Sequence record: PV252060.1
Reading direction: 5' to 3' (one strand)
Source: Escherichia phage nithesis
Length of the DNA: 64,000 nucleotides
The stretch's first letter is position 1, and every line of letters begins with the position of its first letter. A program made the translations under genes and the position numbers. Below, piece by piece: positions 1 through 34,796 of the stretch. A model generated the notes under the pieces. That model searched no databases, was not told the origin of the DNA, and saw nothing but the letters and a program-made list of their open reading frames with translations.

Positions 1-690
1 ATGAGTGAACTAACTAAGCAGCAGATTATTAATGCCTTACCTGCTAACTTCAAAAACAGTGTGACCCAGGAGTTGGTAGATACAATTAACAACATTACCC
101 AAGACCAACTGGTTGCTGAGTCCTTCCGTGAAAACTTTATCTCCTACTCTAGCGTAATGAAGGAGGGTAAGTTTAAGACGCAGGACTACATGAATGCAGT
201 TCAGTATGTGACTTACAAACACATGGGCTACTCAAATAAGGAAGCCTACTTCAAGACATTCCCTAATCGGCAAGCTGAACTCGTAGCACGAGGAACCAGT
301 GAGAAAGATATTAGTGCTTATGTATCTGCTTATCACAGAGGTAAGTTAGTTAACCTCATCATGGAACAAAGTTTGGTTCCAGTGTGGATTGTGAACCAGG
401 ACAATTATCAGAAGGCTATCAATGTTCAGGTTGAACTGATGACTACGGCAGCAAGTGAGAAGGTACGTTGTGATGCAGCTAACTCTATCCTTACCCACTT
501 AGCTAAACCAAAAGACCAGGTAACGAATATCAATCTGGACTTGAGAGAGAACTCTGGATTGACTGACCTCAAGGCAACACTTGCTGCATTAGCTGAACAG
601 CAAATTAATGCAATCAACAGTGGTGTACCTACCAAAGAGGTTGCTGGTTCTAAACTAGTACGTGCAGATGAGGACATTACAGATGTCTGA
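1..690 (+). CDS. putative terminase small subunit (possibly truncated at window edge)
   Basis: 229-aa ORF immediately upstream of and overlapping the terminase large subunit; assignment is by position only, no motif recognised; ATG at position 1 may not be the true start. Confidence 0.3.
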   Translation: MSELTKQQIINALPANFKNSVTQELVDTINNITQDQLVAESFRENFISYSSVMKEGKFKTQDYMNAVQYVTYKHMGYSNKEAYFKTFPNRQAELVARGTSEKDISAYVSAYHRGKLVNLIMEQSLVPVWIVNQDNYQKAINVQVELMTTAASEKVRCDAANSILTHLAKPKDQVTNINLDLRENSGLTDLKATLAALAEQQINAINSGVPTKEVAGSKLVRADEDITDV

Positions 691-2272
691 GTTAATTAAA
701 CAGGAACTAGATGAATGGCTAGACCAGGTGGATTATTCCCATCTTAATTCATCTAACTATGTTCCCAGTCAGTTTGCCCTTACCTTTGCCAACTTTATTA
801 AGTTGGTTAATGGCAAAGAAGGTGAGTCCAACAAAACACCCCCAGTTCACTTGAAGATGCTGGATAAGATGATTAGTCCGAACCAGTATGTAGTTAACCT
901 GTGCTTCCGTGGTGCAGGTAAGACTGCTGTGTTCATGGAATACTTTACTTTATTCCTGGCAGTGTTCGGGCATTTACCAAGTCTGGGTAAGGTAGAAGGA
1001 ATGATTTACGTATCTGACTCAATGGATAACGGTGCTAAGTCTGCACGTAAAAACATTGAGTTTCGTTACAAGAATAGTGAGTTCCTTCAGCAATGGATAC
1101 CTGAAGCTACCTTTACGGATAACCTACTGGAGTTCCGTAATGTAGAAGGGCATCGACTTGGTGTTAAGCTGTTTGGTGCTAAGACGGGTCTTCGTGGTAC
1201 GAAGATATATGGTAAGCGTCCAACACTCTGTGTACTGGATGACTTGATTAGTGATGGTGATGCTAACTCCAAGACTAGCATGGAAGCTATTAAGGATACC
1301 GTCTATAAAGGTGTGAACCATGCTCTTGACCCAACCCGTCGTAAAGTAATCTTCAATGGTACTCCCTTTAATAAGGAAGACATTATCATTGAAGCAGTCG
1401 AATCTGGTGCATGGGATGTCAACGTATGGCCTGTATGTGAGAAGTTCCCCTGTAGTAGGGAAGAATTTCAGGGTGCATGGGATGACCGTTTCTCTTACGA
1501 CTACATTAAAGCCCAATATGACATGGCAGTTAAGACCGGTAAGCTGGCAGGCTTCTATCAGGAACTTATGCTCCGTATTAGCTCAGAAGATGAGAGACTG
1601 GTTCAGGATAGTGAAATTAGATGGTATAGCAGACAGCAGCTATTAAGAATGAAGTCCTGCTACAACTATTACATTACAACCGACTTTGCTACTTCGGAGA
1701 AACAGACCAGTGACTACAGTGTCATATCAGTTTGGGCTTATAGTTCTAATGGAGATTGGTTCTGGGTTGATGGTGTGGCTAATCGTCAGCTTATGGATAA
1801 AAACTTTGATGACCTGTTTCGTCTGGTTCAAGAATACCAACCACAAAACGTTGGGGTCGAAATCACAGGGCAGCAAGGTGGATTCATTTCACTCCTTCAG
1901 AAAGAAATGATTAACCGTAATGTCTTCTTTAACTTTGCGTCCTCTGAGGGTGGTAAGCCAGGCATACGTCCTGTAACCTCTAAGCTGTCTCGCTTTAACC
2001 TGGTAGTTCCATGGTTCAAAGCTGGTAAGATGTACTTCCCAGAAGAGTTGAGAGATTCAACTATTATGGGACTGTTCATGGGCCAGATTAAACTAGCTAC
2101 CATTAATGGAATCAAAGGTAAGGATGACTGTATTGATACTATCTCCATGCTGGGTTATCTCAATCCTTGGAAACCACAAGCAGGTATGACTATGGTGGAT
2201 AACAAGGGTGACCCGATGTGGGATGACGAAGAAGAAGATAGTGTTAACCCACTACGTTCATACATTGTGTGA
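662..2272 (+). CDS. terL: terminase large subunit
   Basis: 536 aa; P-loop-like RGAGKTAV near N-terminus, acidic C-terminal nuclease-like region; position at head of structural module as in N4-like phages. Confidence 0.75.
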   Translation: MQMRTLQMSELIKQELDEWLDQVDYSHLNSSNYVPSQFALTFANFIKLVNGKEGESNKTPPVHLKMLDKMISPNQYVVNLCFRGAGKTAVFMEYFTLFLAVFGHLPSLGKVEGMIYVSDSMDNGAKSARKNIEFRYKNSEFLQQWIPEATFTDNLLEFRNVEGHRLGVKLFGAKTGLRGTKIYGKRPTLCVLDDLISDGDANSKTSMEAIKDTVYKGVNHALDPTRRKVIFNGTPFNKEDIIIEAVESGAWDVNVWPVCEKFPCSREEFQGAWDDRFSYDYIKAQYDMAVKTGKLAGFYQELMLRISSEDERLVQDSEIRWYSRQQLLRMKSCYNYYITTDFATSEKQTSDYSVISVWAYSSNGDWFWVDGVANRQLMDKNFDDLFRLVQEYQPQNVGVEITGQQGGFISLLQKEMINRNVFFNFASSEGGKPGIRPVTSKLSRFNLVVPWFKAGKMYFPEELRDSTIMGLFMGQIKLATINGIKGKDDCIDTISMLGYLNPWKPQAGMTMVDNKGDPMWDDEEEDSVNPLRSYIV

Positions 2273-2278
2273 GGAACC

Positions 2279-2989
2279 ATGCAAAAATTATCGGAAGTAT
2301 ATCGTGGCTTGGCATTAAGTACCTTGAAGGGTACTGGTGCAGTCACCGATGACAGATTAGGCATTGAACCAGATAGTAAGCCAGAGATATTGGCTGCTAT
2401 TAATGAAGGGTTAGTTCGACTGCATAGTCGTTTCCCCCTTAGAACTAATAGCTGCATTGTGGAGATGAAGGAAGGTCGTACTGATTATCCCCTCCAATCT
2501 CGGTATGCTTACTCCAGATTTACTAAGCCTACTCTTGAGATTCAATATCCATACATCATGGATGGGTTCATGAAACCTTTCCAGGATGATGTTATTAAAA
2601 TCTTAAATGTGTTTGATAACTCAGGGAATCGCCGTAGACTTAACGACGATTCAGATCCCCATGCAATTTTCACCCCACGGCCTGATACTATTCAGTGTAT
2701 GCGACCTCGACACTTCGAGGCACTTAACGTAACTTATCAAGCTAAGCACCCAATACTTACGGGTGATGAAGAACAGGAAGTTGACTTAGCAGATACACTA
2801 ATGACAGCACTTCATAACTGGGTGGGTTATCGTTACCACACTGGTTTGAATACTCCGGAAGCTAATGCTAAGGCAGCAGAGTATCTGCAAACGTATGAAA
2901 GCATCTGTGGTGAGGTTGTTGATTACGACCTGGCTAATGGAAGTATTTCAATTACCGAAACTAAATTTGAACAACGAGGATGGCGATGA
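2279..2989 (+). CDS. virion structural protein, function unknown
   Basis: 236-aa ORF between terminase and tail fibre genes; 10-nt overlap with the next gene suggests translational coupling. Confidence 0.4.
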   Translation: MQKLSEVYRGLALSTLKGTGAVTDDRLGIEPDSKPEILAAINEGLVRLHSRFPLRTNSCIVEMKEGRTDYPLQSRYAYSRFTKPTLEIQYPYIMDGFMKPFQDDVIKILNVFDNSGNRRRLNDDSDPHAIFTPRPDTIQCMRPRHFEALNVTYQAKHPILTGDEEQEVDLADTLMTALHNWVGYRYHTGLNTPEANAKAAEYLQTYESICGEVVDYDLANGSISITETKFEQRGWR

Positions 2990-5900
2990 ACGCACATACC
3001 CCCTTTGATGCAAAACAGGATTGGACCAATCCATACTGCCAGAACAGTTCCAATGACCCAATGGTAGATGCACTACTTGGTAATGCTTACCATGTGGTTC
3101 GAACTGTGTACTGCAATCTTGGTAACCTCAAACTTCTGTATGATTTCCTGAACCAGTATGGAATGGTACTTGGTGTACAGTCTGAGGCAGAACTTAAGGC
3201 TCTAACCACTGAAGCTAAGTATGCCCGTATCTACGGTTTCTCCCGTGCAGGTGACCGTCAGATAACTGACTACCTTTATGTGGAAGGTGACCGTACCGGT
3301 ATCATTCCAGATGACCCAAAGGCAACTGGTTCATGGATTACCGTTGCTACTTCTGGTTCCAATGATAGTGGTACTTCCTCCGGTGAAGGTGCTTATATTC
3401 CATGGGTATATGCAAACGGTTCTGCTACTGGTGGTGAAACTACAATCAACGTACCAGATGGTACGGTGGGTGTACCTTTTATTATTGTTAATGGCGACAT
3501 GCAGTATGTAGGTCGTGGTTTTGAGTTTAATATTGACAGCCTGTCTGTAACTCTGGCTCAACCTCTGGAAGAGGGTGATGAAGTAGTATTCCTGCTGACT
3601 GGGGTTCCTGCTGTGCCAGATAACCCTAACGTTAGTGATTGGGTTCAGATCAACTGGTTATATAACAATGGTGCTGCTGTAGGTGGCGAGCAGGTTATTG
3701 CTATTCCTTATACCTTCCAGTCTGTTCCTGCTGTGTATAAGAATGGGCTTCGTTTATATAAAGGATTAACCACTGAGTCTTATACTGCTGACCCCGATAA
3801 CCAACGTATACTTCTTACTGAGTCACTGGCAACCGATGACCGGTTGATTGTACAGCTTGGTGGCGAGTCATGGGTATTTGAAGCATCAGACAGTACACTT
3901 CAAGAAGTGGCTCGTGCAGCTAACGTAAAAGACTCTGAAGTAATCCTTAGTACGGACACCACTCAGGTACTTAATGGTAAGAAGGTAATTTATGATGTAG
4001 TTTCCCAACGTATATACTGGTTACCTACCCTACCTACCAATGTTTATATCATCTCTGTCTCAGACGGACAGCTAACATATTCTCCTGGAAATATTACTGT
4101 TACTCTGCTGGATTCCTACCAGCAGCAGAATGCCAGAGAACTATGGCGACGTAACCTTGCTGAGGCCGGTTTAACTCTTGTCGATGGTAGCTTTGAAGAA
4201 GGTGTCACGGCGAACAGTGCAACTGATGCTGTTTGGCATATCGCTGGTGGGCAGTGTTACACGTGGGGTGGCGAATTTCCTAAAACTGTAGTACCTGGCT
4301 CAACTCCAGCAACAACTGGTGGGATTAGTGATGATGCATGGTTAAGTGTTGGTGATGTAAGTTTAAGAAGTGACCTGGCTGATGATGACGGAGTTGATTT
4401 AGTTAACGGAGCAGTCAAGGATAAAGATTTTGAGCTTTACAAAAGGCAATCAATTGCAAAAAATAGATTTAATTTCGCTTTTGGGAATAAATACTCAAGA
4501 AGCTTTAATAATAATTTGCGCTTACAGTTGCAAACTTATGTAGAGAATGTATTTAACTTTGCACCAAAAGCGGTGTCACTTCCGAGTGGGCGGGTGGTAT
4601 GTATCTACACAGTGAAGGATGGTGCTAATATTGACCCAGGACAGGACGGCACACCTATGCACATTGATTACCTAATATCTGATGATAACGGTGTGAACTG
4701 GACCACTGGAACTGTTGTTAACAAAGGACCAGGATATGCCACTTCTGAAACGGTACTATTCCTAAATAATCTTGATGGATATTTGTATTGTTTCTTTACA
4801 TCAATGAAGGGGATTACTGGGTGGGGACATGCACAACAAGGAACTAACCCTGACACAACATCAACTATTGAATATGTCATATCAAAAGATGGTGGCAATA
4901 CATGGAGCACCCCTGTTGATATTACGCCATTGGTTAAACCATCTGGTGCTTACTTCTCATCAATTGCACCTACACAAGTCGGGTACATAAATGGCAAGCC
5001 TGCAATTCCTTATTATTATTTAACTCAACTATCTACAGGAATAGTTGAGGGGTATATCACAGTTGATGATAGCGGTAACTACACCTACGGTGAAGATGTC
5101 AGGAAAGACACCGATGTCGATACGCTAGGAACTTCTGGCGGCGAGATTGGATTTGGCAATTTCTATGATGGAACACCTTTTGCAATTGAGCGTGCTGCCG
5201 ACACAACAATCAAACCGTATAAAATCGCAATACAAAAGCTATTAATGCAAGATTCTAGTGGAAAGTGGGTTGTAAAAGGACAGTTCCCTACCACTAACTG
5301 TATGGCGTCGTTCTTACGCGTTGGCCCTGATTATGGTTTTGATAAGGATTATCTCTTTGTTATCGCACCTGTTGGTCAATCAGGTAATTATGAAGGACGT
5401 GCAAACATTAGAGTATTCGACTGCTCTGACGATTTTAGCAATCCTATTGATCGCGGCATGATAACAGACACAAATGCTTTGGAGGCAGGTTACAGTTCAA
5501 CCGTGCTTCTATCTTCTGGTTCATTTATGAGTATGTGGAACGGTAGACAGTGGACGATTAGCAATTCAATTTACACTATTAACAGGCTTGCGGGCAACGC
5601 AATTATCCCTGTCCCGTTTTGTGGCACTATTAAAATTGTTGACATTAGAAAGACTTTTGCACCCGATTTAAGAACCAACGAGCGAGTGATTGGTCTTGCT
5701 GACGGCAAAGAATATACATGGAACGGTTCATCATTTGTGCTTGGTATTTCGTCACCAACGAAAACGCTAACAACTGAAACAACTACATTAGATGCCAACT
5801 CTTGCGACGTATTTTATCTCGACGCTGGAAGTAATGGGTCAGTGATAACGTCAATCACTGGTGGATATATCGGACAAAGGATATCAATACTTCCGTTATC

Positions 5901-6072
5901 CGGCAGCACTGTTGTGACGCTTTCAAGACAAGCGTCCGGCGTCTCTGTCACCGACAGAATTATGTATAATACAGAAACCGGGAAGACAAAATACAACACA
6001 AACGGGGAGATTGTAGAGTTAATAAAAACGAACTACGGATGGTATTTAAACAAATCAGCAAATGCATCATAA
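2980..6072 (+). CDS. tail fibre/tailspike with BNR/Asp-box (sialidase-like) C-terminal domain
   Basis: 1030 aa; two Asp-box motifs S-x-D-x-G-x-T/N-W (ISDDNGVNWTTG near nt 4675-4710; ISKDGGNTWSTP near nt 4880-4915); Gly/Ser/Thr-rich N-terminal half typical of fibres; hairpin terminator follows. Confidence 0.6.
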   Translation: MAMNAHTPFDAKQDWTNPYCQNSSNDPMVDALLGNAYHVVRTVYCNLGNLKLLYDFLNQYGMVLGVQSEAELKALTTEAKYARIYGFSRAGDRQITDYLYVEGDRTGIIPDDPKATGSWITVATSGSNDSGTSSGEGAYIPWVYANGSATGGETTINVPDGTVGVPFIIVNGDMQYVGRGFEFNIDSLSVTLAQPLEEGDEVVFLLTGVPAVPDNPNVSDWVQINWLYNNGAAVGGEQVIAIPYTFQSVPAVYKNGLRLYKGLTTESYTADPDNQRILLTESLATDDRLIVQLGGESWVFEASDSTLQEVARAANVKDSEVILSTDTTQVLNGKKVIYDVVSQRIYWLPTLPTNVYIISVSDGQLTYSPGNITVTLLDSYQQQNARELWRRNLAEAGLTLVDGSFEEGVTANSATDAVWHIAGGQCYTWGGEFPKTVVPGSTPATTGGISDDAWLSVGDVSLRSDLADDDGVDLVNGAVKDKDFELYKRQSIAKNRFNFAFGNKYSRSFNNNLRLQLQTYVENVFNFAPKAVSLPSGRVVCIYTVKDGANIDPGQDGTPMHIDYLISDDNGVNWTTGTVVNKGPGYATSETVLFLNNLDGYLYCFFTSMKGITGWGHAQQGTNPDTTSTIEYVISKDGGNTWSTPVDITPLVKPSGAYFSSIAPTQVGYINGKPAIPYYYLTQLSTGIVEGYITVDDSGNYTYGEDVRKDTDVDTLGTSGGEIGFGNFYDGTPFAIERAADTTIKPYKIAIQKLLMQDSSGKWVVKGQFPTTNCMASFLRVGPDYGFDKDYLFVIAPVGQSGNYEGRANIRVFDCSDDFSNPIDRGMITDTNALEAGYSSTVLLSSGSFMSMWNGRQWTISNSIYTINRLAGNAIIPVPFCGTIKIVDIRKTFAPDLRTNERVIGLADGKEYTWNGSSFVLGISSPTKTLTTETTTLDANSCDVFYLDAGSNGSVITSITGGYIGQRISILPLSGSTVVTLSRQASGVSVTDRIMYNTETGKTKYNTNGEIVELIKTNYGWYLNKSANAS

Positions 6073-6077
6073 CAACA

Positions 6078-6100
6078 AACCCCGCTTAGGCGGGGTTTTC
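6078..6100 (+). terminator. intrinsic terminator after tailspike 1
   Basis: CCCCGC-TTAG-GCGGGG hairpin followed by TTTTC. Confidence 0.6.
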
Positions 6101-6121
6101 TAGAAAAACAATGAGGTTTAC

Positions 6122-8419
6122 ATGAACGAATTATTCTCTCAAGGTGGTAAAGGCTCTACTGGTATTCTTACCAATAAACAAGCCATTGCCCGTAAGTTTG
6201 GTGTTAAACAGAATGAAGTGGTCTACTTTGCTGTAGGTGTAGACTTAGGTGGTTACAAAGTTATTTACGATAAGACTACCCAGCGTGCTTACTCATTACC
6301 CGCACTCCCAACAGGAACTACTGCTGTAAGCCTCAATGAACATGCAATCCTGATTCATTCAGCAGGTACAGTTGATTTGGGGGAACTGGCTGCTACACGT
6401 AGAGAGTTCGTGGTCCTGTCTGACACGTTTGCTACTGGTTTGGTAGTGAATACACGAAATGAATTATTATTTCATAATGGAGTAGGTTATACCTACTTAG
6501 GTACTCTACCTGTAACAATTACCACAGGAACTAATCCTGTAGGTAACACAGATTGGAAACCACAGACTGACCTTAATTTACGGGAAGAATTAGCGGCTGA
6601 CTTCGGTTATCAGCTAGTTCCGTCTGTGGAAAAGCAACGATGGCTTTACGCCGGGGACGTGCGTGCTTTTGGGGTTGTTGGTGATGGGTCTGATGAGGCA
6701 TCTAGTTTGCAGTTAGCCATTAACTCGGGTAATGTTTTTGTTCCCCCGGGCATGACGGTTTCTCATTCACAAGTCAACATACCAAAAGGTACGATTTTTA
6801 CTTTCGGTCATGGTGCTGGGTTGACATCATTGACTGCTAATGCTCTTAATTTCGTCAGCGAGAGCCAATTCAGCTTGCTTTCCCCTGCAGCTTCTGGAGC
6901 AACGTCCATCACATTAACATCTGAGGTGACAGGAACTGGGTATACCCGGGCTTTGGTAATACGCACTGAGGACACAAGTGACGCTTGGTATATCGCCAAC
7001 GCACAGAATCCGGATGTAATCGGATACCAAGGTGAATCTTTTTTAATATCGTCCATATCAGGTGCTACTGTAAATTTAGCAACGGCTTTACCGTGGGACC
7101 TAACTACCACCAATTCGATTATTTATCTTATAAAAGGCAACGCTACTAAGTTCATCGGGGGAATCTTAAAAAATGCTGCGTCAGGGTCTAGCTACATGTA
7201 CCAATCCGTGGGGGCTTCACTTATAGAGTTCCATGGTACTGCTTTTGATTATAATGGAAACGGCGGTTCAAGGCATGATAACGCGTACGGTGTGGTTTAC
7301 CACAACACTACCCATACCGGGCGTGTCGGAAATGGTAATATATTTTTTGGTTATGGATCTACAGATTGTACTGTCACGGGTACGACCCACATTGGAGGGA
7401 CCGGTGGGGATGCGCAAATAATATCTTACGCTGGCTGCCGTAACATCCGTACATCCCTTAACATCCTAAAACCTACAGCTAACAACGGGGGTATATATTT
7501 TGGTGCAAAAAGCTTCGACTGCAACACCCATGCTGATTATATTAAAGGCGGAAAGTATGGGGTTATGGGGGCATTTGGTGCTCAGCGTATTGTTGTGGAC
7601 TCGCTGGCGGCAGACGACCAAGTATCAGGCGCTATCTTTATGGAGCAATGCCAGAACTTTACCATCACAAACCCGTCTATTAGATTCGTAAGGACTGGCG
7701 CTCAAACAACCGCTGCGATATTAATTAAGGACTGCGATTATGTGACAGTGGATGCAAATGTCCCTGTAAATACAGGGGCGAACGGGTATATAGTCAGTAT
7801 GTATAGCGCTCCTGCATACGCCCTAACAGTTAGAAAAAATATAAACATTACGGTAAAAGGTACTGGCAGTGTATACCTTACTAGCCCTATGACCAATTTC
7901 TCGATTAAAGACTGTTTAACATCCGGCGGTATGACAGTTTACTACGCCAATGGTACGTCTACTTACGGCAAGGTTACGCGTAATAGTTGCCGGTTTTTAG
8001 TAGCTCAAAGTTTCCAATATTGTGACATAGATAGTAACACCATTGTGGGGGATTCTGATTCTGAGGGTATACGCCTTGGTGGTAACTGTAGATGGAACAA
8101 CGTATATAGAAACAAGGTTAGTGGGGTTACTACGGCATTCTTCGTTAACTCAGCACCCGCAAATCTATACACGAATGCGTTTCATGATGATAACGTAATA
8201 GATTACTCAACAGTAACCACCTTCGTATCATCTCAGACTGGAACCACCACACCAGTTACTGGAGTGTTAAACCCCGCTCCAGTGAGGAATTTCTTTCTCC
8301 CGGCAACAGGTTGGCAGGATAGCCCTACGGTAAAAAGAACTGTTAGTGGCTGGAGGCATAAAGGCACTACAACAGGCACAGCGTCTGATTGGTTTACTAT
8401 CCCCTCGTCAGAAGCGTGA
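6122..8419 (+). CDS. second tailspike / tail fibre, probable beta-helix depolymerase-type protein
   Basis: 765 aa; long Gly/Thr/Asn/Ser-rich repetitive sequence consistent with a beta-helix tailspike; located in the tail module; followed by a hairpin. Confidence 0.5.
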   Translation: MNELFSQGGKGSTGILTNKQAIARKFGVKQNEVVYFAVGVDLGGYKVIYDKTTQRAYSLPALPTGTTAVSLNEHAILIHSAGTVDLGELAATRREFVVLSDTFATGLVVNTRNELLFHNGVGYTYLGTLPVTITTGTNPVGNTDWKPQTDLNLREELAADFGYQLVPSVEKQRWLYAGDVRAFGVVGDGSDEASSLQLAINSGNVFVPPGMTVSHSQVNIPKGTIFTFGHGAGLTSLTANALNFVSESQFSLLSPAASGATSITLTSEVTGTGYTRALVIRTEDTSDAWYIANAQNPDVIGYQGESFLISSISGATVNLATALPWDLTTTNSIIYLIKGNATKFIGGILKNAASGSSYMYQSVGASLIEFHGTAFDYNGNGGSRHDNAYGVVYHNTTHTGRVGNGNIFFGYGSTDCTVTGTTHIGGTGGDAQIISYAGCRNIRTSLNILKPTANNGGIYFGAKSFDCNTHADYIKGGKYGVMGAFGAQRIVVDSLAADDQVSGAIFMEQCQNFTITNPSIRFVRTGAQTTAAILIKDCDYVTVDANVPVNTGANGYIVSMYSAPAYALTVRKNINITVKGTGSVYLTSPMTNFSIKDCLTSGGMTVYYANGTSTYGKVTRNSCRFLVAQSFQYCDIDSNTIVGDSDSEGIRLGGNCRWNNVYRNKVSGVTTAFFVNSAPANLYTNAFHDDNVIDYSTVTTFVSSQTGTTTPVTGVLNPAPVRNFFLPATGWQDSPTVKRTVSGWRHKGTTTGTASDWFTIPSSEA

Positions 8420-8436
8420 CTTATAGCTGTAAAACT

Positions 8437-8460
8437 AAGGCCCCAAATGGGGCCTTTTCT
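8437..8460. terminator. bidirectional hairpin terminator between convergent genes
   Basis: AAGGCCCC-AAAT-GGGGCCTT perfect hairpin with T-rich flank, between + gene ending 8419 and - gene ending 8460. Confidence 0.6.
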
Positions 8461-9113
8461 TATATAGAATTTACTGTTTGCATTACCCTAACCGATACTG
8501 CTGTTAAGGTTATTACTTGTCCTGATATATTAAACATACCCAACTGAATACCATCTACCATGAAAGGGTCAGATGAACCAAGTGTGTAAGTAGCTAGTAC
8601 GTTATCCCTATTAGCTATGTCCGTACCCTGTACCTTAACACTAGCATCTGAACCTACTACCGTAGTTCCATTGGTTCGTCTTGTTTGTGTTCTCCATTCT
8701 CTTGCTGTACCAGCACCTCCTGCAATAGTTCCTGAGATACGAACACTGAACATTACCTGGGTATTCCTGGTTCTAGCAGGGAACTTAAGATTACCCCCTT
8801 CAATCGTTAGTGCTGCTGTACCTCCTGGTGATTTAGTTATTCCTGGTAATGAAAAGTAATTGAACCAGGTCTGGTCATTTACTGCTTGGTTACCAGTCCA
8901 TGTATACAAGTCCAGAAGGAAAGTATCTTCTAACTCTGTTGGTGGGATGGGTAGTAGTTCAGGGGGAAGCTCTGAAACGTTATTAGCAGAAACTATTCGT
9001 TCCCCATAGCTTCCCACGACCAACAAACCACCCTTCATTTTGCACACAACATCCTTACCACTTTGGAAAATATCTTTAATAGACATAGTTACCTCGTAGT
9101 TGATACCAGACAC
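8460..9113 (-). CDS. hypothetical protein on opposite strand inside the late module
   Basis: 217-aa ORF in a gap with no + strand ORF; GAGGT Shine-Dalgarno 6 nt upstream of the ATG; Gly/Thr-rich, possibly tail-associated. Confidence 0.45.
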   Translation of the reverse strand: MSGINYEVTMSIKDIFQSGKDVVCKMKGGLLVVGSYGERIVSANNVSELPPELLPIPPTELEDTFLLDLYTWTGNQAVNDQTWFNYFSLPGITKSPGGTAALTIEGGNLKFPARTRNTQVMFSVRISGTIAGGAGTAREWRTQTRRTNGTTVVGSDASVKVQGTDIANRDNVLATYTLGSSDPFMVDGIQLGMFNISGQVITLTAVSVRVMQTVNSI

Positions 9114-9210
9114 TATGTCTGGATGTACTTCATCATACTAAGTATTATCTAAGAGTCATCTTATGATACGACCCTATTGGGGTTCCTAACTTCACAACTA
9201 CGGTAATATT
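9114..9210. promoter_or_regulatory. divergent intergenic region (putative promoters for 8460-9113 and the lysis cassette)
   Basis: 97-nt AT-rich gap between divergently oriented genes; no promoter consensus verified. Confidence 0.25.
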
Positions 9211-9540
9211 ATGAATGAATCGGGTGAACTGCTTCTAGTCAGACTGGAGGAACGATTGAAGACTCTGTTTGAGAACCAGACAAGGGACAGGCAGGACCGT
9301 GAGAAACTGGAGGAAACTCTGGTAGAACTACGGGATTCAATCAATGACATAGGCAATAGACTAAAGAATGTGGAGGATAGCTTAGCTAAGAATGAACCTA
9401 CTATTGAAGAGTTCATCACCATTAAGCATAAAGTTGTTGGTGCTGGAATCTTCGGTAAGTGGGTGTGGGCTGGGGCAGGTGCAATTATTGGTGTATTGGC
9501 TGCTGCAAGACGGGAGATATTCGCATGGTTCGCAGGTTAA
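9211..9540 (+). CDS. putative holin/antiholin-like protein (coiled-coil plus C-terminal transmembrane segment)
   Basis: 109 aa; charged coiled-coil-like N-terminus, hydrophobic Gly/Ala-rich C-terminal segment IFGKWVWAGAGAIIGVLAAA; directly upstream of endolysin. Confidence 0.35.
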   Translation: MNESGELLLVRLEERLKTLFENQTRDRQDREKLEETLVELRDSINDIGNRLKNVEDSLAKNEPTIEEFITIKHKVVGAGIFGKWVWAGAGAIIGVLAAARREIFAWFAG

Positions 9541-9785
9541 AAAGAAAGGTAGAGTTAGTACCTAACTGGAAAAGATGTTGGAAGTGGGCATCCATTCAGA
9601 TTAGTACATTTGGTTTAATTCTGTTCTCTGCTGTAGATATTATCCAACCAATGCTGACTGGGTTACCCCGTCACATCCTGGAAGATATTCCCCATGGTTC
9701 CAATATTGCAATTGCACTGTTTGCCTTAAACATCATAGGCAGATTGATACGATTCCGTCCAAAGGAAGATTCACATGAAAGCTAA
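9525..9785 (+). CDS. putative holin (two predicted transmembrane helices)
   Basis: Start moved to internal ATG at 9525 overlapping the upstream stop; basic N-terminus then two hydrophobic stretches; overlaps endolysin start. Confidence 0.4.
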   Translation: MVRRLKRKVELVPNWKRCWKWASIQISTFGLILFSAVDIIQPMLTGLPRHILEDIPHGSNIAIALFALNIIGRLIRFRPKEDSHES

Positions 9786-10410
9786 ACAAAAACTTGCTGC
9801 GAAAGGTGGTGCAGTGGGAGGAGTTGTCGCTGCTATCCTGGGGGCAGTGTTCTATATGGAAGGGGGATATGTAAACAATCCTCGTGACCCAGGTGGGGAA
9901 ACTAATCATGGTATTACCCATGCAGTAGCTAAGTCTCACAAAGAAATTCTGGCCACTGAATACGGTTGGGATGGTTCTATGAAAGGTTTATCTAAAGAGA
10001 TGGCTGCTGAGATATATATTGATGACTACGTACTTAAGCCTAACTTCGTATCCTTCGCTGATATATCTCCTGCTGTAACACATAAGCTGGTAGATGCTGG
10101 TGTTAACACTGGTGTAACCCGTCCTGCTAAGTGGTTGCAGTTATCTCTTAATGAAATGTCCCGTAATGGCAAAGACTACCCTAAAATACAGGTTGATGGT
10201 AAAGTCGGTACAAGTACTGTTAATGCATATAAAGCATTACAGAAAAAACGAGGCAAAGTTGCAGCATGTCAGGTAATGATTAAGTTACTTGATGCCAAAC
10301 AACTGAACCACTACACCTCATTAAACATGCCAGACTTTACGTATGGTTGGGTAGCTAACCGAATAGGCAATGTGCCACTGGAGGCATGTAATGAAGATGC
10401 TAATCTCTAA
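9775..10410 (+). CDS. endolysin, GH108-type N-acetylmuramidase with peptidoglycan-binding domain; possible SAR N-terminus
   Basis: EGGYVNNPRDPGGETNHGIT matches the GH108 catalytic motif; N-terminal weakly hydrophobic Gly/Ala-rich stretch GGAVGGVVAAILGAVFY resembles a signal-arrest-release segment. Confidence 0.75.
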   Translation: MKAKQKLAAKGGAVGGVVAAILGAVFYMEGGYVNNPRDPGGETNHGITHAVAKSHKEILATEYGWDGSMKGLSKEMAAEIYIDDYVLKPNFVSFADISPAVTHKLVDAGVNTGVTRPAKWLQLSLNEMSRNGKDYPKIQVDGKVGTSTVNAYKALQKKRGKVAACQVMIKLLDAKQLNHYTSLNMPDFTYGWVANRIGNVPLEACNEDANL

Positions 10411-10897
10411 AGGTTGGCCTTATCTTCTGGTGGTGGTCCTAGGGACCACCATTTACTTTTGGGGCAATTCCAATGGGCAGTCTACTGTTCAAAAGAAGTG
10501 GGATGACCAAAAGGTTGAATATCAGAAGGCAATGCAAAAATTACAGGACAAATATAATGCTCTCCAAAGAAACCATAGTTATGAAGTCGGGTTACTCACT
10601 TCCCGGTTGCAGACGGCTGAGAGTAATTACGCAAGCGAGCTTGCTCGCGTTAGCAGTGATTACGACAGCCGGATGCAACAGTCTGAAAGACGAGCATCGG
10701 TATATAAACGTCAAGCCGAAGCCGGAACCTTTGAGTGCAGAAGTCTTGCAAGCCATGCAGCCAGACTCGACAACAGTCTTGAAGAAGGCAGACGTTTGGT
10801 TGAAGAACTCAGGGCAACTGTTAGACTCCGTGACAGCCAACTAATTGAGTTGGGTAAACAGATTCAGGCTGACCGTAAACTTTTTGAACAGGAATAA
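10391..10897 (+). CDS. i-spanin (Rz-like)
   Basis: N-terminal transmembrane helix ([16 protein letters not shown]) then charged coiled-coil-like periplasmic domain; directly after endolysin; start moved to internal Met. Confidence 0.55.
10581..10844 (+). CDS. o-spanin (Rz1-like lipoprotein) embedded in the i-spanin gene in another frame
   Basis: Embedded ORF with basic n-region, hydrophobic region ending in a T-A-G-C lipobox-like motif, and a proline-rich mature part (KPKPEPL). Confidence 0.5.
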   Translation: MKSGYSLPGCRRLRVITQASLLALAVITTAGCNSLKDEHRYINVKPKPEPLSAEVLQAMQPDSTTVLKKADVWLKNSGQLLDSVTAN

Positions 10898-10899
10898 CT

Positions 10900-13170
10900 A
10901 TGGAACACCAAGACACTTTTAAGCCTTTACCAGACCCAGCTCAATCAGAGAAGTTAACGGACTGGAAAAAAGAACCAAGTATCCAATTACTGAAAGGTGA
11001 TTTGGAATCAGCTAAACCTGCTCACGATGCAATCATGGCTCAGATTCGTGAGTGGAATGACCTGATGGAAGTCAAAGGCAAAGCTAAACCCCCAAAGGTT
11101 AAAGGGCGTTCTCAAGTTCAGCCTAGACTGGTTCGCCGTCAGGCTGAGTGGCGTTATGCACCACTATCTGAACCATTCCTCTCTTCTAATAAACTCTTTA
11201 AAGTAACTCCTGTTACTTTTGAAGATGAGTTAGCTGCACGACAGAATGAATTAGTTCTTAACTACCAATTCCGTACCCAGCTTAATAAAGTAAAGCTGGT
11301 GGATGATTACGTACATAGTGTCGTAGATGACGGTACTGGTATTGCACGTATTGGCTGGGAACGTAAGACTGTTAAGATTAAAACAGAAACCCCGGTCTTC
11401 CAGTTGTATCCAATTGAGAACCAAGAACAAGCAGATATTCTTCAGCAGGCTTTGCAGCTTCAGGCAGAGAATCCCCGTGAGTATGATGAAACAATGCCGG
11501 AAGATATTAAGGAAGCTGTTAACTACTTCAATGAAACTGGAGAAGCCACTTATGCAATCCAGACTGGTGTTACTGAGGTAGAGGTAGAGAAAGCATTGGT
11601 TAACAGACCTACTGTTGAAATGCTTAATCCAAATAACGTAGTTATTGACCCAAGCTGTAATGGTGATTTGGATAAAGCTTTGTATGCAGTTATCTCATTT
11701 GAGACATGCAAAGCAGACCTCATGAAGAACAAAGACCGTTATCATAATCTGGATAAGATTGACTGGGAAAGTTCCAGTCCTATGACTGACCCAGACCATG
11801 AAAGTAAAACTCCTGGTGACTTCCAGTTTAAGGATGCACTTCGTAAGAAAGTAATTGCTTATGAATACTGGGGATTTTACGACATCAACGATGATGGCTC
11901 ACTGGAACCAATTGTAGCTACCTGGATTGGTTCTACTCTTATTCGCATGGAAAAGAATCCATTCCCGGATGGTAAGTTGCCTTTGGTAGTTGTTCCTTAT
12001 ATGCCTCGTAAACGCGAACTCTACGGTGAAGCTGATGCTGAATTGTTAGGAGATAACCAAGCAATTCTTGGTGCAACTATGCGTGGGATGATTGACCTGT
12101 TAGGTCGAAGTGCAAATGGGCAACGTGGTTATCCTAAGGGGATGTTAGATACCCTAAACCGACGTCGATATGATGATGGTCAAGACTATGAGTATAACCC
12201 AATGCAGGGCAATCCTAGTCAGGCCATTATGGAACATAAGTTCCCTGAGTTACCTCAGTCGGCAATAGTAATGACTCAGATGCAGAACCAGGAAGCTGAA
12301 GCACTAACTGGTGTTAAAGCATTCTCTGGTGGTGTAACTGGTGCAGCTTACGGAGATGTGGCTGCTGGTATTCGTGGTGCACTCGATGCAGCATCCAAAC
12401 GTGAGATGGCAATCCTTCGTCGGTTAGCTAAGGGTATGGCAGACATTGGTACTAAGATTTGTGCAATGAATGCTGTGTTCTTATCTGAGAAAGAAGTAGT
12501 ACGTATTACTAATGAGCAATATGTAGAAATTAACCGTGAAGACCTTAAAGGTAATTTCGATATTGAAGTTGATATTAATACTGCTGAAATTGATAACCAG
12601 AAATCTCAAGATTTGAGCTTCATGGTTCAAACGTTAGGTAATACAGTTGACCAGACTATTACTTTATCTCTTGTAGCTAAGATTGCAGAACTCAAACGCA
12701 TGCCTGACCTTGCACATGAATTACGTACCTGGAAACCACAACCAGACCCTATGGAAGAACAGCTTAAGCAATTGGCAATTCAGAAAGCACAGCTTGAGAA
12801 TGAAGAGTTGAAAAGTAAGATTGCACTCAATAATGCTAAGGCTAAAGAGGCTATTTCTAGTGGTGATCTTAAAGACCTGGATTATCTGGAACAGGAATCT
12901 GGTACTAAACATGCTCGTGATATGGAAAAACAAAAAGCACAATCTCAAGGAAACCAGAACCTTCAGATAACTAAGGCGTTGACAACACCTACTAAAGAAG
13001 GTGAAACTACCCCCAACATATCTGCTGCTGTCGGATATAACGCTTTGACTAACGGGAACTCTTTACAGGAACGTGACTTAGCTGCACAGCAAGACCCGAC
13101 TTATTCACTTAGTTCCCAGTATTATGACCCTAGCCAAGACCCAGCATCGGCTCTTGGTATGAACTTATAA
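10900..13170 (+). CDS. portal protein
   Basis: 756 aa, size and position match N4-like portal; follows lysis genes and precedes scaffold/capsid genes. Confidence 0.65.
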
Positions 13171-13183
13171 GGCAGACCTTCAC

Positions 13184-13528
13184 ATGAGTAAAGAATCAAC
13201 AATCGCAGGACTGGAACATCGACTGGAAGTTGCTAAAGGTGCAGTTGCACATGCAGAAGATGTACGTAAACTTCTGGAGAACCCACTGTTCCGTAAAGTA
13301 ATCCTTCGTCAGTTCTGTGTAGAAGATTGTGCACGTTACGTGCAGGAGTCTGGTGACCCACTCCTTGAACCTAATAACCGTGCTGATGCATTGAACATGG
13401 CTCAGGCTGCTGGTCACTTACGTCGTTGGCTCGACCTCGCCATTCGTATGGGTGAAAACGAAGCTGACGTTATTCTTCAGGTAGAAGAAGAACTCGATGC
13501 AGTTCGTGCTGAACCTGAAGACGAATAA
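13184..13528 (+). CDS. hypothetical head-morphogenesis protein
   Basis: 114-aa ORF between portal and scaffold-like gene. Confidence 0.35.
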   Translation: MSKESTIAGLEHRLEVAKGAVAHAEDVRKLLENPLFRKVILRQFCVEDCARYVQESGDPLLEPNNRADALNMAQAAGHLRRWLDLAIRMGENEADVILQVEEELDAVRAEPEDE

Positions 13529-13547
13529 TTAACCGGAGATATTTCCT

Positions 13548-14768
13548 ATGACTACGGAAGCTGCAACCACAGCTTCCGACATTCTCGCAATGTCGGATGA
13601 TGAGATTCTGAATATGGAAGCCCCAGCAATTGTTGCTGAGGAAGAAACTTCCACTCAGAACAACCCAGAAACCAACGGCGTACAGACTCCTGATGAAGAA
13701 GTTGACACCTCTGCTGTTGAAGACCTACCAACCGAAGAAACCTCCCCCGAAACTGAACCAGTTGAAGATGATTCAGCAAATTCTTTAACTTCTGATAAAG
13801 TTGATGATAAAGTTGTTGACACAGAAGTTGATAGTAACGGCAAGCCGATTACTAAAGCTGAACCTTCTACTGCTGAACCAGGCCAGGAACAGAAAGAAGA
13901 AGGCAAACAGTCTGAAGGTCTGCCTGCTGACTTCAACTATAAGGAAGGTTATGAGAAGTTGATGGCTCCTTTTAAAGCTAACGGCAAAATGATTACTCCC
14001 CGTTCACCGGAGGAGGCCATTAGCCTGATGCAGATGGGTGCTAACTATACTCGTAAGATGCAAGAACTTCAGCCGTACCGTAAGGTAATGCTGATGCTAC
14101 AAAACAACGGTTTAATGGATGAGGAAAAACTTTCTTTCCTGATTGACCTGGATAAGAAGAATCCTGAAGCCATTAAAAAGTTGTTGAAAGACTCTGGTAC
14201 AGATCCTCTGGACTTTAATCCAGAAGAGGAGATTAACTACCAGGGTGGCAAACACCGTGTTACAGACACCGAAGCAGATTTTGCAACCGAAATTGACGAC
14301 TTAAAGTCTACTCAAGAAGGACAAGCTACATTAGGTGTTATTAGCTCGACATGGGATGCTGCCAGTAAAGATGCTCTTTATCAGAATCGTGGCTTACTCC
14401 ACACCATTCACGAACAGCGTGAGAATGGTATTTATGACACCATTGCTAACGAAGTGAATCGTCTTCAGGTGTTAGGTCAGATTCCGGTAGGTACTCCGTT
14501 TATTCAGGCTTATAACTACGTTGGTAACCTCCTTGCACAACAGGGAGCATTTAACCAAGTGGCTAAGCCTGAACCGGTACAAGCAGTTAAACCAGCAGTT
14601 CAGCCGGTAGTGCGTATAGCACAACCTAAGCAGACTCTGGCTAACAATGAGCAAGCTAAAGCAGCTTCCCTTAATCGGGCTGCTACACGTAAAGCAACAC
14701 CTATTGTAAACCCACTCGCTATGAGTGATGAAGATTTCGCTAAACTCCCAGTACCGGGTAGTCTTTAA
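13548..14768 (+). CDS. putative scaffolding protein
   Basis: 406 aa; strongly acidic low-complexity N-terminal region (E/D/T/P-rich); immediately upstream of major capsid gene. Confidence 0.4.
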   Translation: MTTEAATTASDILAMSDDEILNMEAPAIVAEEETSTQNNPETNGVQTPDEEVDTSAVEDLPTEETSPETEPVEDDSANSLTSDKVDDKVVDTEVDSNGKPITKAEPSTAEPGQEQKEEGKQSEGLPADFNYKEGYEKLMAPFKANGKMITPRSPEEAISLMQMGANYTRKMQELQPYRKVMLMLQNNGLMDEEKLSFLIDLDKKNPEAIKKLLKDSGTDPLDFNPEEEINYQGGKHRVTDTEADFATEIDDLKSTQEGQATLGVISSTWDAASKDALYQNRGLLHTIHEQRENGIYDTIANEVNRLQVLGQIPVGTPFIQAYNYVGNLLAQQGAFNQVAKPEPVQAVKPAVQPVVRIAQPKQTLANNEQAKAASLNRAATRKATPIVNPLAMSDEDFAKLPVPGSL

Positions 14769-14784
14769 ACAGGAATGAGATGAT

Positions 14785-15987
14785 ATGTTAAACTATAACG
14801 CTCCAATTGACGGTCAGAAATCTAGCATTGATGGTGCTGGTTCCGACCAGATGAATACCTATTACTGGCTGAAAAAGGCTATTATTCAGTCCCGTAAAGA
14901 CCAATATTTCATGCCTCTGGCTAACACCGTTAACATGCCGAAGAACTACGGTAAGACTGTTAAGGTGTACGAGTACGTTCCTCTGCTTGACGATAAGAAC
15001 ATTAACGATCAGGGTATTGATGCTAACGGTGCTACCATAGTTAACGGTAACCTGTACGGTTCTTCCAAAGACGTTGGTAACATCACCTCTAAACTGCCTC
15101 TGCTGTCAGAGAACGGTGGTCGTGTTAACCGTGTAGGCTTTACTCGTCTGGCTCGTGAAGGTTCTATTCATAAGTTCGGTTTCTTCTACGAATTTACTCA
15201 AGAATCTCTGGACTTTGATTCTGACGACCAACTTAAAGAACACCTGTCTCGTGAACTGATGAACGGTGCTGTACAGTTGACTGAAGCTGTTCTCCAGAAA
15301 GACCTGCTGGCTGCTGCTGGTACTGTACTGTATGCAGGTGCTGCTGTTTCTGATGCTACCATCACTGGTGAAGGTTCTACCCCGTCTGTAGTTTCTTATA
15401 AGAACCTGATGCGTCTTGACCAGATTCTTACTGAGAACCGTACTCCGACCCAGACTACTATCATCACTGGTTCTAAACTGACTGATACCAAAGTACTTGG
15501 TGGTACTCGTGTAATGTACGTTGGTTCTGAACTGGTTCCAGAACTGAAAGCGATGAAAGACCTGTTTGGTAATAAAGCATTCATCGAAGTTCAGCACTAT
15601 GCTGATGCTGGTACACTGATGAATGGTGAAATTGGTTGTATTGATAAGTTCCGTATTATCCAGGTTCCAGAGATGCTGCATTGGGCAGGTGCTGGTGCAC
15701 AGGTTACTACTAACCCGGGTTACCGTACCACTATGGTATCTGGTCAGGAGCACTACGACGTATTCCCGATGCTGGTAGTTGGTGATGATTCCTTCTCTAC
15801 CATTGGCTTCCAGACTGATGGTAAGTCTGTTAAGTTCACCATCATGACTAAGATGCCTGGTAAAGAAACTGCTGACCGTAATGACCCGTATGGTGAGACT
15901 GGCTTCAGTTCTATCAAGTGGTACTATGGTATCCTGGTTAAACGCCCAGAACGTCTGGCTCTGATTAAGACTGTTGCTCCTCTGTAA
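14785..15987 (+). CDS. major capsid protein
   Basis: 400 aa, size and position match N4-type major capsid protein; codon usage of a highly expressed gene; strong hairpin terminator directly downstream. Confidence 0.7.
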
Positions 15988-16003
15988 TAGTCCGAAATAA
16001 AAC

Positions 16004-16030
16004 AAGGGGGACATAAGTCCCCCTCTTAAT
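16004..16030 (+). terminator. intrinsic terminator after major capsid gene
   Basis: GGGGGAC-ATAA-GTCCCCC hairpin followed by TCTTAAT. Confidence 0.6.
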
Positions 16031-16054
16031 AAAACTAAATGAACTACAGGAAAT

Positions 16055-16693
16055 ATGAACATGAGCATTAACGATAAACCGACCACTGACGTAGAAGTGA
16101 ACGTACAGGGCAACGAAGATACCGTTAACGATATTGCAATGCCTAGCGAACTTGAAGTTCTTAAGCAACGAGCAACGTTGATGAATATCAAGTTCTCTAA
16201 CAACATTTCCGTTGAGAAGCTTCGTGAGAAGATTGAAGCTGCACAAGTAAAAGATGAACCAGTAGTAGAAGCTACTGTTAACCCATTGGGTGCTAATCAG
16301 GAAGCCGGTGTTAAGAAGATGACCCTGGGTCAGAAGATTCGTGCAGAACAGACTCGACTGATTCGTGTACGTATTCAGAACCTTGACCCTAAGAAGAAAG
16401 ACCTCCCGGGTGAGATTATCACCGTAGCTAACGAATACATGGGTACTGTACGTAAGTTTGTTCCGTTCGGTGAAGTAACCGACAATGGTTATCATATTCC
16501 GTACTGTATCTACGAGTTCCTTAAAGAGCGTAAGTTCATTAACATTACTACCCGTAAAGGTAAGAATGGCTTACCTGACATCCGTGCAACAGAAGCACGA
16601 GAGTTCTCCATTGAAGTACTGCCTCCGTTGACAGAAGCTGAATTAGCTCAACTGGCTCAAGCACAGATTGCTGCTGGTAGCCTTAACGATTAA
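16055..16693 (+). CDS. virion-associated protein, function unknown
   Basis: 212-aa ORF downstream of capsid gene. Confidence 0.4.
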   Translation: MNMSINDKPTTDVEVNVQGNEDTVNDIAMPSELEVLKQRATLMNIKFSNNISVEKLREKIEAAQVKDEPVVEATVNPLGANQEAGVKKMTLGQKIRAEQTRLIRVRIQNLDPKKKDLPGEIITVANEYMGTVRKFVPFGEVTDNGYHIPYCIYEFLKERKFINITTRKGKNGLPDIRATEAREFSIEVLPPLTEAELAQLAQAQIAAGSLND

Positions 16694-16763
16694 CGTATAA
16701 GCTACAGTTCAACACGGCTCACTGGGGTAACTCCGTGGGCCGTTTCTTTTTGAACCAAGAGGA

Positions 16764-17606
16764 ATGATTATGTCTTGTTCTGCTGAGGTAGAAGCTAACC
16801 GACTCCTAGAAGAGTTAACTAAGGGTGATGACTTTACCCTTCCTGATATTGATATGTCTGGCCCTGAATGGGATATCCCTGGTGGTGATGATTCTCCAAT
16901 CTTTGGTGCCATTACTAAAGTAACCAACGAATCTCTTACTACCCGTGAAGTAGGTGGCAGTGGTACGTTTGATGCATTAATGGAATCTGCACATAATCAC
17001 CTTAAAGCTGAGTTTAAGGCTAACCGTATTACAGGTGGTGAATATACCAAAGCATACATTGCTATGATGGAATCATGCATGAGTAATGCTGTTCAGTTCT
17101 TACTTGGTCGTGACCAGGCATACTGGGCTGCTGCATTGGCACAGATTCAGGCTGTTACTGCACGTGTTACACTGGCTACCTCTAAAGCACAGTTTGTACT
17201 AGCTAAGATTCAAGCAATATCTGCTAAGAGTGAATACGCTCTTACTAAGATGAAGATTGCTACTGAGTCTGAAACGTACTGTGCTGCATTGTTTAATGCC
17301 GACCAGATGTTACCTCAACAGCTTAAATTGCTTACTGAGCAGACTGAAGCACAACGTGCACAGACACTGGATACTCGTACTGATGGTGCAGTAGTTAAGG
17401 GTTCTGTAGGTAAACAGAAAGAGTTGTACTCCCAGCAGATTACTTCTTACCAACGTGATGCAGAGGTTAAAGCATCTAAGCTGTTCACTGATGCATGGAT
17501 TACACAGAAGACTATTGATGAAGGCTTGAATCCACCTAATGGTTTCACCAACGCAAGTATTGACACCATTCTGACCAAGCTGAAGTCTAACAACGGGCTG
17601 AACTAA
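16764..17606 (+). CDS. virion structural protein, function unknown
   Basis: 280-aa ORF in structural block. Confidence 0.4.
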
Positions 17607-17607
17607 T

Positions 17608-34791: not shown

Positions 34792-34796
34792 ATAAA

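Follow-up and report, generated by a model that had tools for sequence, protein, structure and literature searches.

In the paradigm set by S21/R21 of phage 21 and Lyz of phage P1, the endolysin is exported by Sec, stays tethered to the membrane and is freed when small-hole holins collapse the membrane potential. For phage N4, a cloned multigene cassette is enough for rapid lysis (Awuah et al., Ramsey laboratory, 2025, bioRxiv 10.1101/2025.11.12.688109). Here we describe the corresponding region of Escherichia phage nithesis (sequence record PV252060.1), using "the window" for the whole 64,000-nucleotide stretch that was analyzed: a lysis cassette at window positions 9211-10897 on the + strand, where five genes occupy 1,687 bp with three overlaps (16, 11 and 20 nt between consecutive genes) and one fully nested gene. 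Gene structure, domains, orthology, conservation and the dual-coding constraint on the nested open reading frame (ORF) were computed here.

The N4 study provides a functional reference for each gene. N4 gp63 is a pinholin that complements S21 and not lambda S105, is lethal on expression and has several rapid-lysis mutations clustered in the "LIN domain", immediately before its C-terminal transmembrane domain (TMD). N4 gp62 is a non-essential large-hole holin that triggers late. N4 gp61, given as a membrane-associated N-acetylmuramidase (Stojkovic & Rothman-Denes 2007, J Mol Biol 366:406, as cited in the preprint), complements whether its partner is a large-hole holin or a pinholin, and when expressed alone causes slow cell rounding; single charge substitutions near its N-terminus, in the Gly/Ala-rich segment, produce rapid-lysis mutants. 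Both gp63 and gp61 are able to substitute for their phage 21 counterparts. The N4 gp60/gp60a pair complements lambda Rz/Rz1, restoring outer-membrane disruption in an Rz/Rz1-defective lysogen (all bioRxiv 10.1101/2025.11.12.688109).

The five proteins encoded in the window cassette are collinear with N4 gp63/gp62/gp61/gp60/gp60a, with 69, 67, 70, 57 and 60% identity, respectively. Gene order, overlaps and adjacency to the portal gene are the same in both phages, as are the signal-arrest-release (SAR) segment and EGGY motif of the endolysin, the TMD and LIN domain of gp63 and the 56-aa length of the mature o-spanin. We conclude that the region is very probably an N4-type multigene lysis cassette, gene-for-gene orthologous to gp63-gp62-gp61-gp60/gp60a, with an N4-like lysis mechanism. 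The limits given for it in a preliminary description of this DNA were exact, running from the ATG of the first gene at 9211 to the final base of the i-spanin stop codon at 10897. Its genes are as follows:

9211-9540, + strand: gp63-like predicted pinholin gene; 109 aa; phrog_5211, E=3e-50; 69% identity to N4 gp63
9525-9785, + strand: gp62-like predicted holin gene; 86 aa, two TMDs; 67% identity to N4 gp62
9775-10410, + strand: GH108 endolysin gene, predicted N-acetylmuramidase, probably SAR-type; 211 aa; PF05838 and PF09374; orthologous to N4 gp61
10391-10897, + strand: i-spanin gene; 168 aa; phrog_6197 "Rz-like spanin", E=2.8e-77; 57% identity to N4 gp60
10581-10844 (alternative ATG 10557), + strand, +1 frame of the i-spanin gene: embedded o-spanin gene; 87 aa (or 95 aa)

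By megablast, the whole cassette is 95-96% identical at the nucleotide level to those of Escherichia phages Bp4, PD38, St11Ph5, EC1-UPM, ECBP1 and others; 87 records matched, 57 of them with at least 80% query coverage. The group that includes Bp4, PD38 and St11Ph5 belongs to the genus Gamaleyavirus (Schitoviridae, Enquatrovirinae), and by this sequence comparison the window, about 96% identical to these three phages, is the genome of a Gamaleyavirus, an N4-like podophage of E. coli. The gene adjacent to the cassette on its downstream side matches the SU10/N4-type portal profile (E=2e-150), and the window also holds a 3,590-aa ORF of the N4 virion RNA polymerase (vRNAP) type. Against the cassettes of near relatives (St11Ph5, Bp4, EC1-UPM, ECBP1 and G7C), that of the window differs by point substitutions only. 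The St11Ph5 record annotates all five genes, as gp63 to gp60.1, with gp60.1 the nested one; the Bp4 record annotates four (orf15-18), as do other records, and the embedded o-spanin gene is unannotated in most of them. The N4 record likewise leaves gp60a unannotated.

The embedded o-spanin gene

The i-spanin consists of an N-terminal TMD (aa 8-25) and a long helical periplasmic domain with a lone Cys at position 116, and its start codon, within the 20-nt overlap with the endolysin gene, is preceded by a GGAGG Shine-Dalgarno sequence 6 nt upstream. The second frame of this gene encodes a lipoprotein-type product with a signal peptide ending in ...AVITTAG directly before the Cys, followed by a mature part of 56 aa that is the same from either candidate start; the St11Ph5 annotation uses 10557 and SpaninDB uses 10581. 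The o-spanin has no periplasmic Cys besides the one predicted to be lipidated. A homodimer disulfide depends on one or more periplasmic Cys close to the i/o interface, and here the pair offers i-spanin Cys116. Gamaleyavirus relatives have a near-identical i-spanin, the same o-spanin signal peptide with ...AVITTAG and Cys at its end, and a near-identical mature part of 56 aa.

Conservation across relatives is decisive for the nested ORF. A lipoprotein-type +1 ORF was found in all 11 GenBank relatives, which span at least seven genera, always with the lipobox Cys, and 19 of the 56 columns of the mature protein were invariant in 11 phages, with the core NVKP...L...MQP-ST..L....W.....LLDSV. We extended the comparison to 80 IMG/VR loci gathered with an i-spanin profile, whose i-spanins are 28-98% identical to that of the window. 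The o-spanin ORF was present in 77 of these loci, invariably in the +1 frame and with the Cys invariant; it was embedded in 59 and extended beyond the i-spanin stop codon in 18. These results bear out the earlier description of the locus as an i-spanin gene (10391-10897) with a wholly embedded, out-of-frame lipoprotein gene (10581-10844).

Selection on the second frame is also visible in the first. The fraction of i-spanin third codon positions that changed was 0.65 before, 0.14 inside and 0.33 after the part overlapping the mature o-spanin in comparison with N4; the corresponding values were 0.48, 0.12 and 0.47 with Moo19 and 0.71, 0.25 and 0.67 with Frozen. This drop inside the overlap is the pattern expected for dual coding. 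The length of the open frame is a weak argument by itself: +1 frames of at least 133 codons arose in 63 of 5000 synonymous recodings (1.3%), and frames of at least 87 codons in 12%.

The rival view is that the +1 ORF is an unexpressed chance frame, and that the outer membrane is disrupted by the i-spanin alone or by some other factor. It can draw on that 12% figure, on a weak ribosome-binding site and an off-consensus lipobox, and on the lack of any match to the o-spanin in Pfam and PHROG searches, although no profile exists there for the nested ORF and the missing match is hence not evidence against it. A chance frame, however, would not keep the same register and, without exception, the lipobox Cys in 77 of 80 loci with i-spanin identities as low as 28%, nor 19 invariant mature positions across 11 phages together with a dual-coding signature at third positions, and in N4 it was gp60 together with gp60a that restored outer-membrane disruption (bioRxiv 10.1101/2025.11.12.688109). 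We therefore consider a chance origin extremely unlikely; on this comparative evidence, the embedded ORF is real and under selection.

The spanin genes of lambda provide a structural parallel without sequence similarity: in Rz/Rz1, too, the whole o-spanin gene lies inside the i-spanin gene and is read in its +1 frame. Lambda Rz1 has 40 aa, about 25% Pro and a Cys at position 29. In contrast, the mature o-spanin of the window has 56 aa and no periplasmic Cys, and only four of its residues (7%) are Pro, in a local KPKPEP motif. The term "proline-rich", used for it in the preliminary description, was thus overstated.

The lipobox, T-A-G-C at nt 10665-10676, places the predicted lipidation site at Cys32 (counting from the start at 10581). 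As had been pointed out, the Thr at -3 is non-consensus: the tetrapeptide fails the pattern [LVI][ASTVI][GAS]C quoted by Kongari et al. 2018 (PMC6139136). It fits a broader PROSITE-style lipoprotein pattern, the Cys being residue 32. Position -3 of the lipobox was occupied by Leu in 53 of the 77 IMG/VR loci, by Thr in 13, by Ile in 6 and by Ser in 3. The loci with TAGC, 12 in number, all belong to a Gamaleyavirus-like clade with 78-98% i-spanin identity.

Other deviant lipoboxes are documented, and one of them (AWAC) has been verified (Kongari et al. 2018, PMC6139136). The SpaninDB supplement of the same study lists EC1-UPM, ECBP1, G7C, PhAPEC5 and PhAPEC7 as embedded pairs. In its EC1-UPM row, both proteins are placed in the "N4" family; the signal peptide is identical to that of the window, the lipobox is TTAG-C, the mature part has 56 aa, and the only periplasmic Cys of the pair is in the i-spanin, which has 168 aa and two coiled-coil segments (PMC6139136). 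The ECBP1 i-spanin is likewise entered under "N4", with two such segments. The earlier doubt as to whether the o-spanin call would hold is resolved by TAGC in the 12 related loci and by the shared signal peptide of EC1-UPM. As judged from these alignments, TAGC is a stable clade variant that has been catalogued since 2018 in SpaninDB, indicating that a working spanin family can tolerate Thr at -3 and pass it on stably.

Sorting by the Lol pathway to the outer membrane requires that position +2 not be Asp. The o-spanin of the window has Asn at +2, which is compatible with outer-membrane sorting. The export signal differs from that of N4: the N4 lipobox is IVGC, and the N4 signal peptide has a short MKSLLILLL... 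beginning that is absent from the window, where the signal peptide is at least 31 aa long.

Endolysin and holin genes

The preliminary description had recognized a GH108 endolysin, and domain searches using Pfam gathering scores as thresholds agree: GH108 (PF05838) spans aa 24-113 (71.0 bits against a cut-off of 21.2, E=1.2e-19), and PG_binding_3 (PF09374) spans aa 117-196 (31.8 bits against 24.6). The protein is 70% identical to N4 gp61 over 199 aa (E=9e-111), and two GenBank records name the orthologue "SAR endolysin N-acetylmuramidase". The solved GH108/PG_binding_3 structures, 6v3z (Sen1395) and 6v40 of the Salmonella TtsA type, share the two-domain architecture and the EGGYVN-P-D-GG-T--GIT motif. 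Their alignment to the window protein starts at the catalytic domain, at about residue 19-23, and is uninformative on the Lys-rich, Gly/Ala-rich N-terminal segment.

That segment reads MKAKQKLAAK-GGAVGGVVAAILGAVFYM-EGGYVNNPRDPGGETNHGIT, with the EGGY motif following GGAVGGVVAAILGAVFYM. It comprises a basic n-region (aa 2-10, with 4 Lys), a putative SAR segment (aa 11-28, nt 9805-9858) and EGGY beginning at E29, the Glu that aligns with E26 of N4 gp61 and with PDB 6v3z. From the literature, we take this Glu to be catalytic. The SAR segment is an uncharged run of 18 residues, 50% of them Gly or Ala and five of them Gly, with a mean Kyte-Doolittle value of 1.87; in a 19-aa sliding window, hydropathy peaks at 1.78 at aa 7-25. 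The weakly hydrophobic, SAR-like N-terminus noted earlier was found again, and the Lys-flanked, Gly/Ala-rich layout with adjoining EGGY is conserved in 10 relatives infecting Escherichia, Shigella, Achromobacter, Erwinia, Stenotrophomonas and Pseudomonas. The window segment retains the N4 pattern GG-VGGV-AAI--AVF--EGGY, and G12 of N4, a site of mutation, aligns with G15. We think it quite probable that the endolysin is of the SAR type, on the basis of orthology to N4 gp61 and not of hydropathy alone.

The first two genes were likewise described before as overlapping genes for small membrane proteins, and this description stands, with one TMD predicted for the first product and two for the second, and a 16-nt overlap between the genes. 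The 109-aa product of the first gene has a charged coiled-coil/helical N-terminal domain and a single C-terminal Gly/Ala-rich TMD at aa 75-99 (VVGAGIFGKWVWAGAGAIIGVLAAA). Its PHROG match, phrog_5211, is a family of unknown function. The segment PTIEEFITIKHK at aa 63-74 is the conserved counterpart of the N4 LIN domain: four of the five LIN-domain positions are identical in the window (T64, I69, T70 and I71), and N4 S62 is replaced by Asn. The juxtamembrane segment and C-terminal TMD, with PTIEEFITIKHKVVGAG-FGKWVWAGAG, are conserved, and the motif PTIEEFITIKHKV-GAG--GKW-W is kept in seven diverse Schitoviridae. Judged by orthology, the first gene encodes a C-terminally anchored pinholin and not a generic holin.

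The second gene starts 8 nt downstream of a GGGAG Shine-Dalgarno sequence. Its product matches PF25612 (DUF7940; E=1.2e-13, 51.8 bits against a cut-off of 27) and phrog_1356 "holin" (E=3.7e-30) and shows two hydropathy peaks.

Several database records contradict the assignment of the first gene. The GenBank entries for Bp4, Moo19, Frozen, Ebordelon and Fifi450 label it "tail length tape-measure protein", which would make it a virion protein outside the lysis system. With 109 aa, however, it falls far short of tape-measure length, it has a conserved C-terminal TMD and no Pfam tape-measure match, and its N4 orthologue is lethal, complements S21 and bears rapid-lysis mutations (bioRxiv 10.1101/2025.11.12.688109). 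A tape-measure function is barely credible, and the label is almost certainly a propagated mis-annotation of a gp63-type pinholin. For the endolysin, the basic n-region and 18-residue uncharged run also resemble, in overall layout, a cleavable Sec signal peptide, which would yield a soluble periplasmic enzyme. Lys44 of Oenococcus phage fOg44 is an example of such a secreted endolysin. Yet the residues before E29 are F-Y-M, with no small -3/-1 pair for signal peptidase I; in all 10 relatives EGGY, with its presumed catalytic Glu, directly follows the hydrophobic run; and N4 gp61 is membrane-tethered, with charge mutants in its SAR segment lysing early (bioRxiv 10.1101/2025.11.12.688109). A signal peptide is thus very unlikely. 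So too, to a similar degree, is a permanent type II signal anchor with no release step: the run is long enough to span the membrane and its mean hydropathy is comparable to that of other TMDs in the cassette, but its 50% Gly/Ala and five Gly are typical of SAR segments (the i-spanin TMD, for comparison, has only 17% Gly/Ala), the N4 data point to release that is stochastic and depends on depolarization (bioRxiv 10.1101/2025.11.12.688109), and an enzyme kept tethered would likely be inactive because the presumed catalytic Glu abuts the helix.

Some further observations concern the starts and labels of these two genes. The tape-measure label has spread across many GenBank and RefSeq records, including those of orthologues in L002, L004, L007, L009 and L010. 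Codon 16 of the gp63-like gene is TTG (9256-9258) and aligns with the N4 alternative start Met17; as in N4, it is preceded by GGAGG (9246-9250, in GGAGGAA with 5-nt spacing). A dual-start pinholin in the window is conceivable, if speculative. We rejected the internal start as a conserved feature, the codon being TTT in Moo19 and CTG or CTT in other lineages. The gp62 frame is open for 22 codons further upstream (9459-9524), with GTG starts from 9459 that would give 108 aa; the N4 long form has 109 aa. This long form was also set aside as a conserved feature, the extension being open in six of nine lineages and closed in Moo19, Ebordelon and Fifi450. The upstream start codons lie within the codons for the gp63 GKWVWA motif and TMD, and their persistence may be incidental.

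Predicted lysis mechanism

By analogy with N4, phage 21/P1 and lambda, we infer the export route, membrane release, lipidation, timing and two-holin hierarchy of this cassette. Sec would export the GH108 muramidase, whose SAR helix would keep it tethered to the inner membrane and inactive. The tail-anchored gp63-like pinholin would accumulate, trigger and depolarize the membrane, at which point the SAR helix would exit the bilayer and the enzyme would be freed and activated all round the cell. The two-TMD gp62-like holin may act later as an accessory hole former. The i-spanin, in the inner membrane with its coiled coils, and the o-spanin, as an outer-membrane lipoprotein, would bridge the periplasm and fuse or otherwise disrupt the outer membrane once the murein is lost.

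This scheme follows the same functional logic of tethered endolysin and pinholin release as phage 21 and P1, using different parts. The window enzyme is a GH108 muramidase, whereas that of phage 21 is a T4-lysozyme-like GH24 enzyme of unrelated fold, and the window pinholin combines a single C-terminal TMD with a large cytoplasmic coiled coil, in contrast to the two TMDs of S21.

A number of points weigh against reading the region as an N4-type cassette with an N4-like mechanism. Functional proof comes from the N4 orthologues and not from this phage's own proteins, and the main functional source is a preprint (bioRxiv 10.1101/2025.11.12.688109). G7C, a member of the N4-like group, lacks the lysis inhibition reported for N4 (bioRxiv 10.1101/2025.11.12.688109), so that the regulatory role of gp63 may differ, yet the gp63 segment is conserved in the window. 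Hydropathy fails to separate a SAR helix from a stable anchor or an ordinary TMD (mean Kyte-Doolittle value 1.87 here and 2.48 in N4). In the spanin pair, the o-spanin start is ambiguous between 10557 and 10581, neither of which has a strong Shine-Dalgarno sequence; the lipobox departs from the usual consensus by its Thr at -3; and of the two proteins only the i-spanin has a periplasmic Cys, a single one.

The cassette is already known, in that it has been annotated, catalogued in SpaninDB and explained experimentally through N4. It is one further near-identical copy of a system annotated in dozens of Gamaleyavirus genomes and in itself of small significance. The value of the comparison is mainly for annotation: the 109-aa first gene should be renamed as a gp63-type pinholin, and most records lack the embedded o-spanin gene.

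A hairpin in the i-spanin gene, and neighboring features

One item in the region might be new, not being described in the sources that we checked. It is an RNA structure within the part of the i-spanin gene that encodes the TMD, 19 nt past the endolysin stop codon:

10429-10453 (flanks 10417-10465), + strand: terminator-like mRNA hairpin with a stem of 11 bp and a loop of 3 nt; a U-rich tract comes next

Its sequence is GGTGGTGGTCC-TAG-GGACCACCATT, then TACTTTTGG. It was the top-ranked terminator-like site in positions 1-20000 of the window, with a folding energy of -26.2 kcal/mol (z=-4.85). The hairpin occurs at identical codons in Bp4, St11Ph5, L019, Moo19, Jgk1, L021 and N4, which represent the Gamaleyavirus, Moovirus, Jgk1-type, L021-type and N4 lineages; the N4 version is GGGUAGCUC-UGG-GAGCUACCC, then UUUUUCUUCUU. 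In an alignment of nine sequences, 98% of cells were paired (38-63% in slid controls), and 5 of the 11 pairs had changed on both sides in a compensatory manner. None of 500 shuffles reached the observed covariation score, but the nine sequences are related and these figures are not probabilities. In each of six coliphage-type (Enquatrovirinae-like) lineages (the window, N4, Moo19, Jgk1, L019 and L021), synonymous recodings matched the stability of the hairpin in only 0-1 of 300 or 0-2 of 150 cases. The G.U and U.G pairs are compatible only with the sense strand, and the hairpin is therefore a feature of the mRNA. Residue 19 of the i-spanin is Thr in the window and Ala in Gamaleyavirus relatives, and with this substitution the hairpin has a U-A pair in the window in place of U.G.

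In more distant lineages a significant hairpin lies elsewhere in the first ~120 nt of the gene or is absent: it is weak and displaced in L024, weak in Ebordelon and missing in Fifi450. The IMG/VR loci L024-L027, with about 56% i-spanin identity, keep the o-spanin (lipobox LLGC or LVGC) and do not have the hairpin at the homologous position, so it is not universal among close relatives.

We lean slightly toward the view that this structure is under selection. That it acts as an intrinsic terminator or attenuator is a tentative suggestion, and on balance a doubtful one; our best guess from its sequence and position would be a terminator or attenuator, or else a hairpin that stabilizes the 3' end of the message after the holin and endolysin genes. 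If selected for any of these roles, it would uncouple the holin-endolysin message from expression of the spanins and portal and help to set the stoichiometry or timing of lysis proteins in Enquatrovirinae. As a terminator or attenuator it would add a small new layer of control to the lysis genes of N4-like phages, whose unusual lysis timing is actively studied. The hairpin is not in Rfam, is not among the features of the N4 record and is not mentioned in the N4 lysis preprint (bioRxiv 10.1101/2025.11.12.688109); a literature search for N4 late terminators and the ONT-cappable-seq paper on LUZ7 yielded nothing on lysis-gene terminators. Programmed frameshifting at the hairpin was considered and rejected: there is no slippery heptamer, and in N4 the +1 frame does not open before codon 52.

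Three other stem-loops in the window (6077-6098, 8437-8456 and 16004-16025) are canonical, GC-rich and followed by T tracts, and lie in short gaps after long ORFs that end at 6072, 8419 and 15987. In the late region they probably serve as intrinsic terminators, and they provide a useful comparison for the intragenic hairpin.

Upstream of the cassette, between it and the tail-spike genes, a 217-aa gene on the - strand (8460-9113) matches phrog_17779 (function not assigned) and has no Pfam match. It corresponds to orf14 in Bp4, and in its place St11Ph5 has a + strand tail-fiber gene, gp63.1; the module beside the lysis genes is therefore variable. The start of the cassette transcript must fall in the 97-nt gap at 9114-9210. 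A scan for sigma-70 promoters over 8300-11200 yielded no + strand site, and a TATAAT at 10551-10556 that had been spotted by eye was dropped as a promoter element, since it is not retained in N4.

An Rfam search of the window returned nothing in the cassette and only two tRNAs elsewhere, in neighboring genes on the - strand (34717-34872). One of them had a weak Rfam score (40.7 bits) and was assigned no anticodon by ARAGORN; the other is a tRNA-Ile with anticodon AAT.

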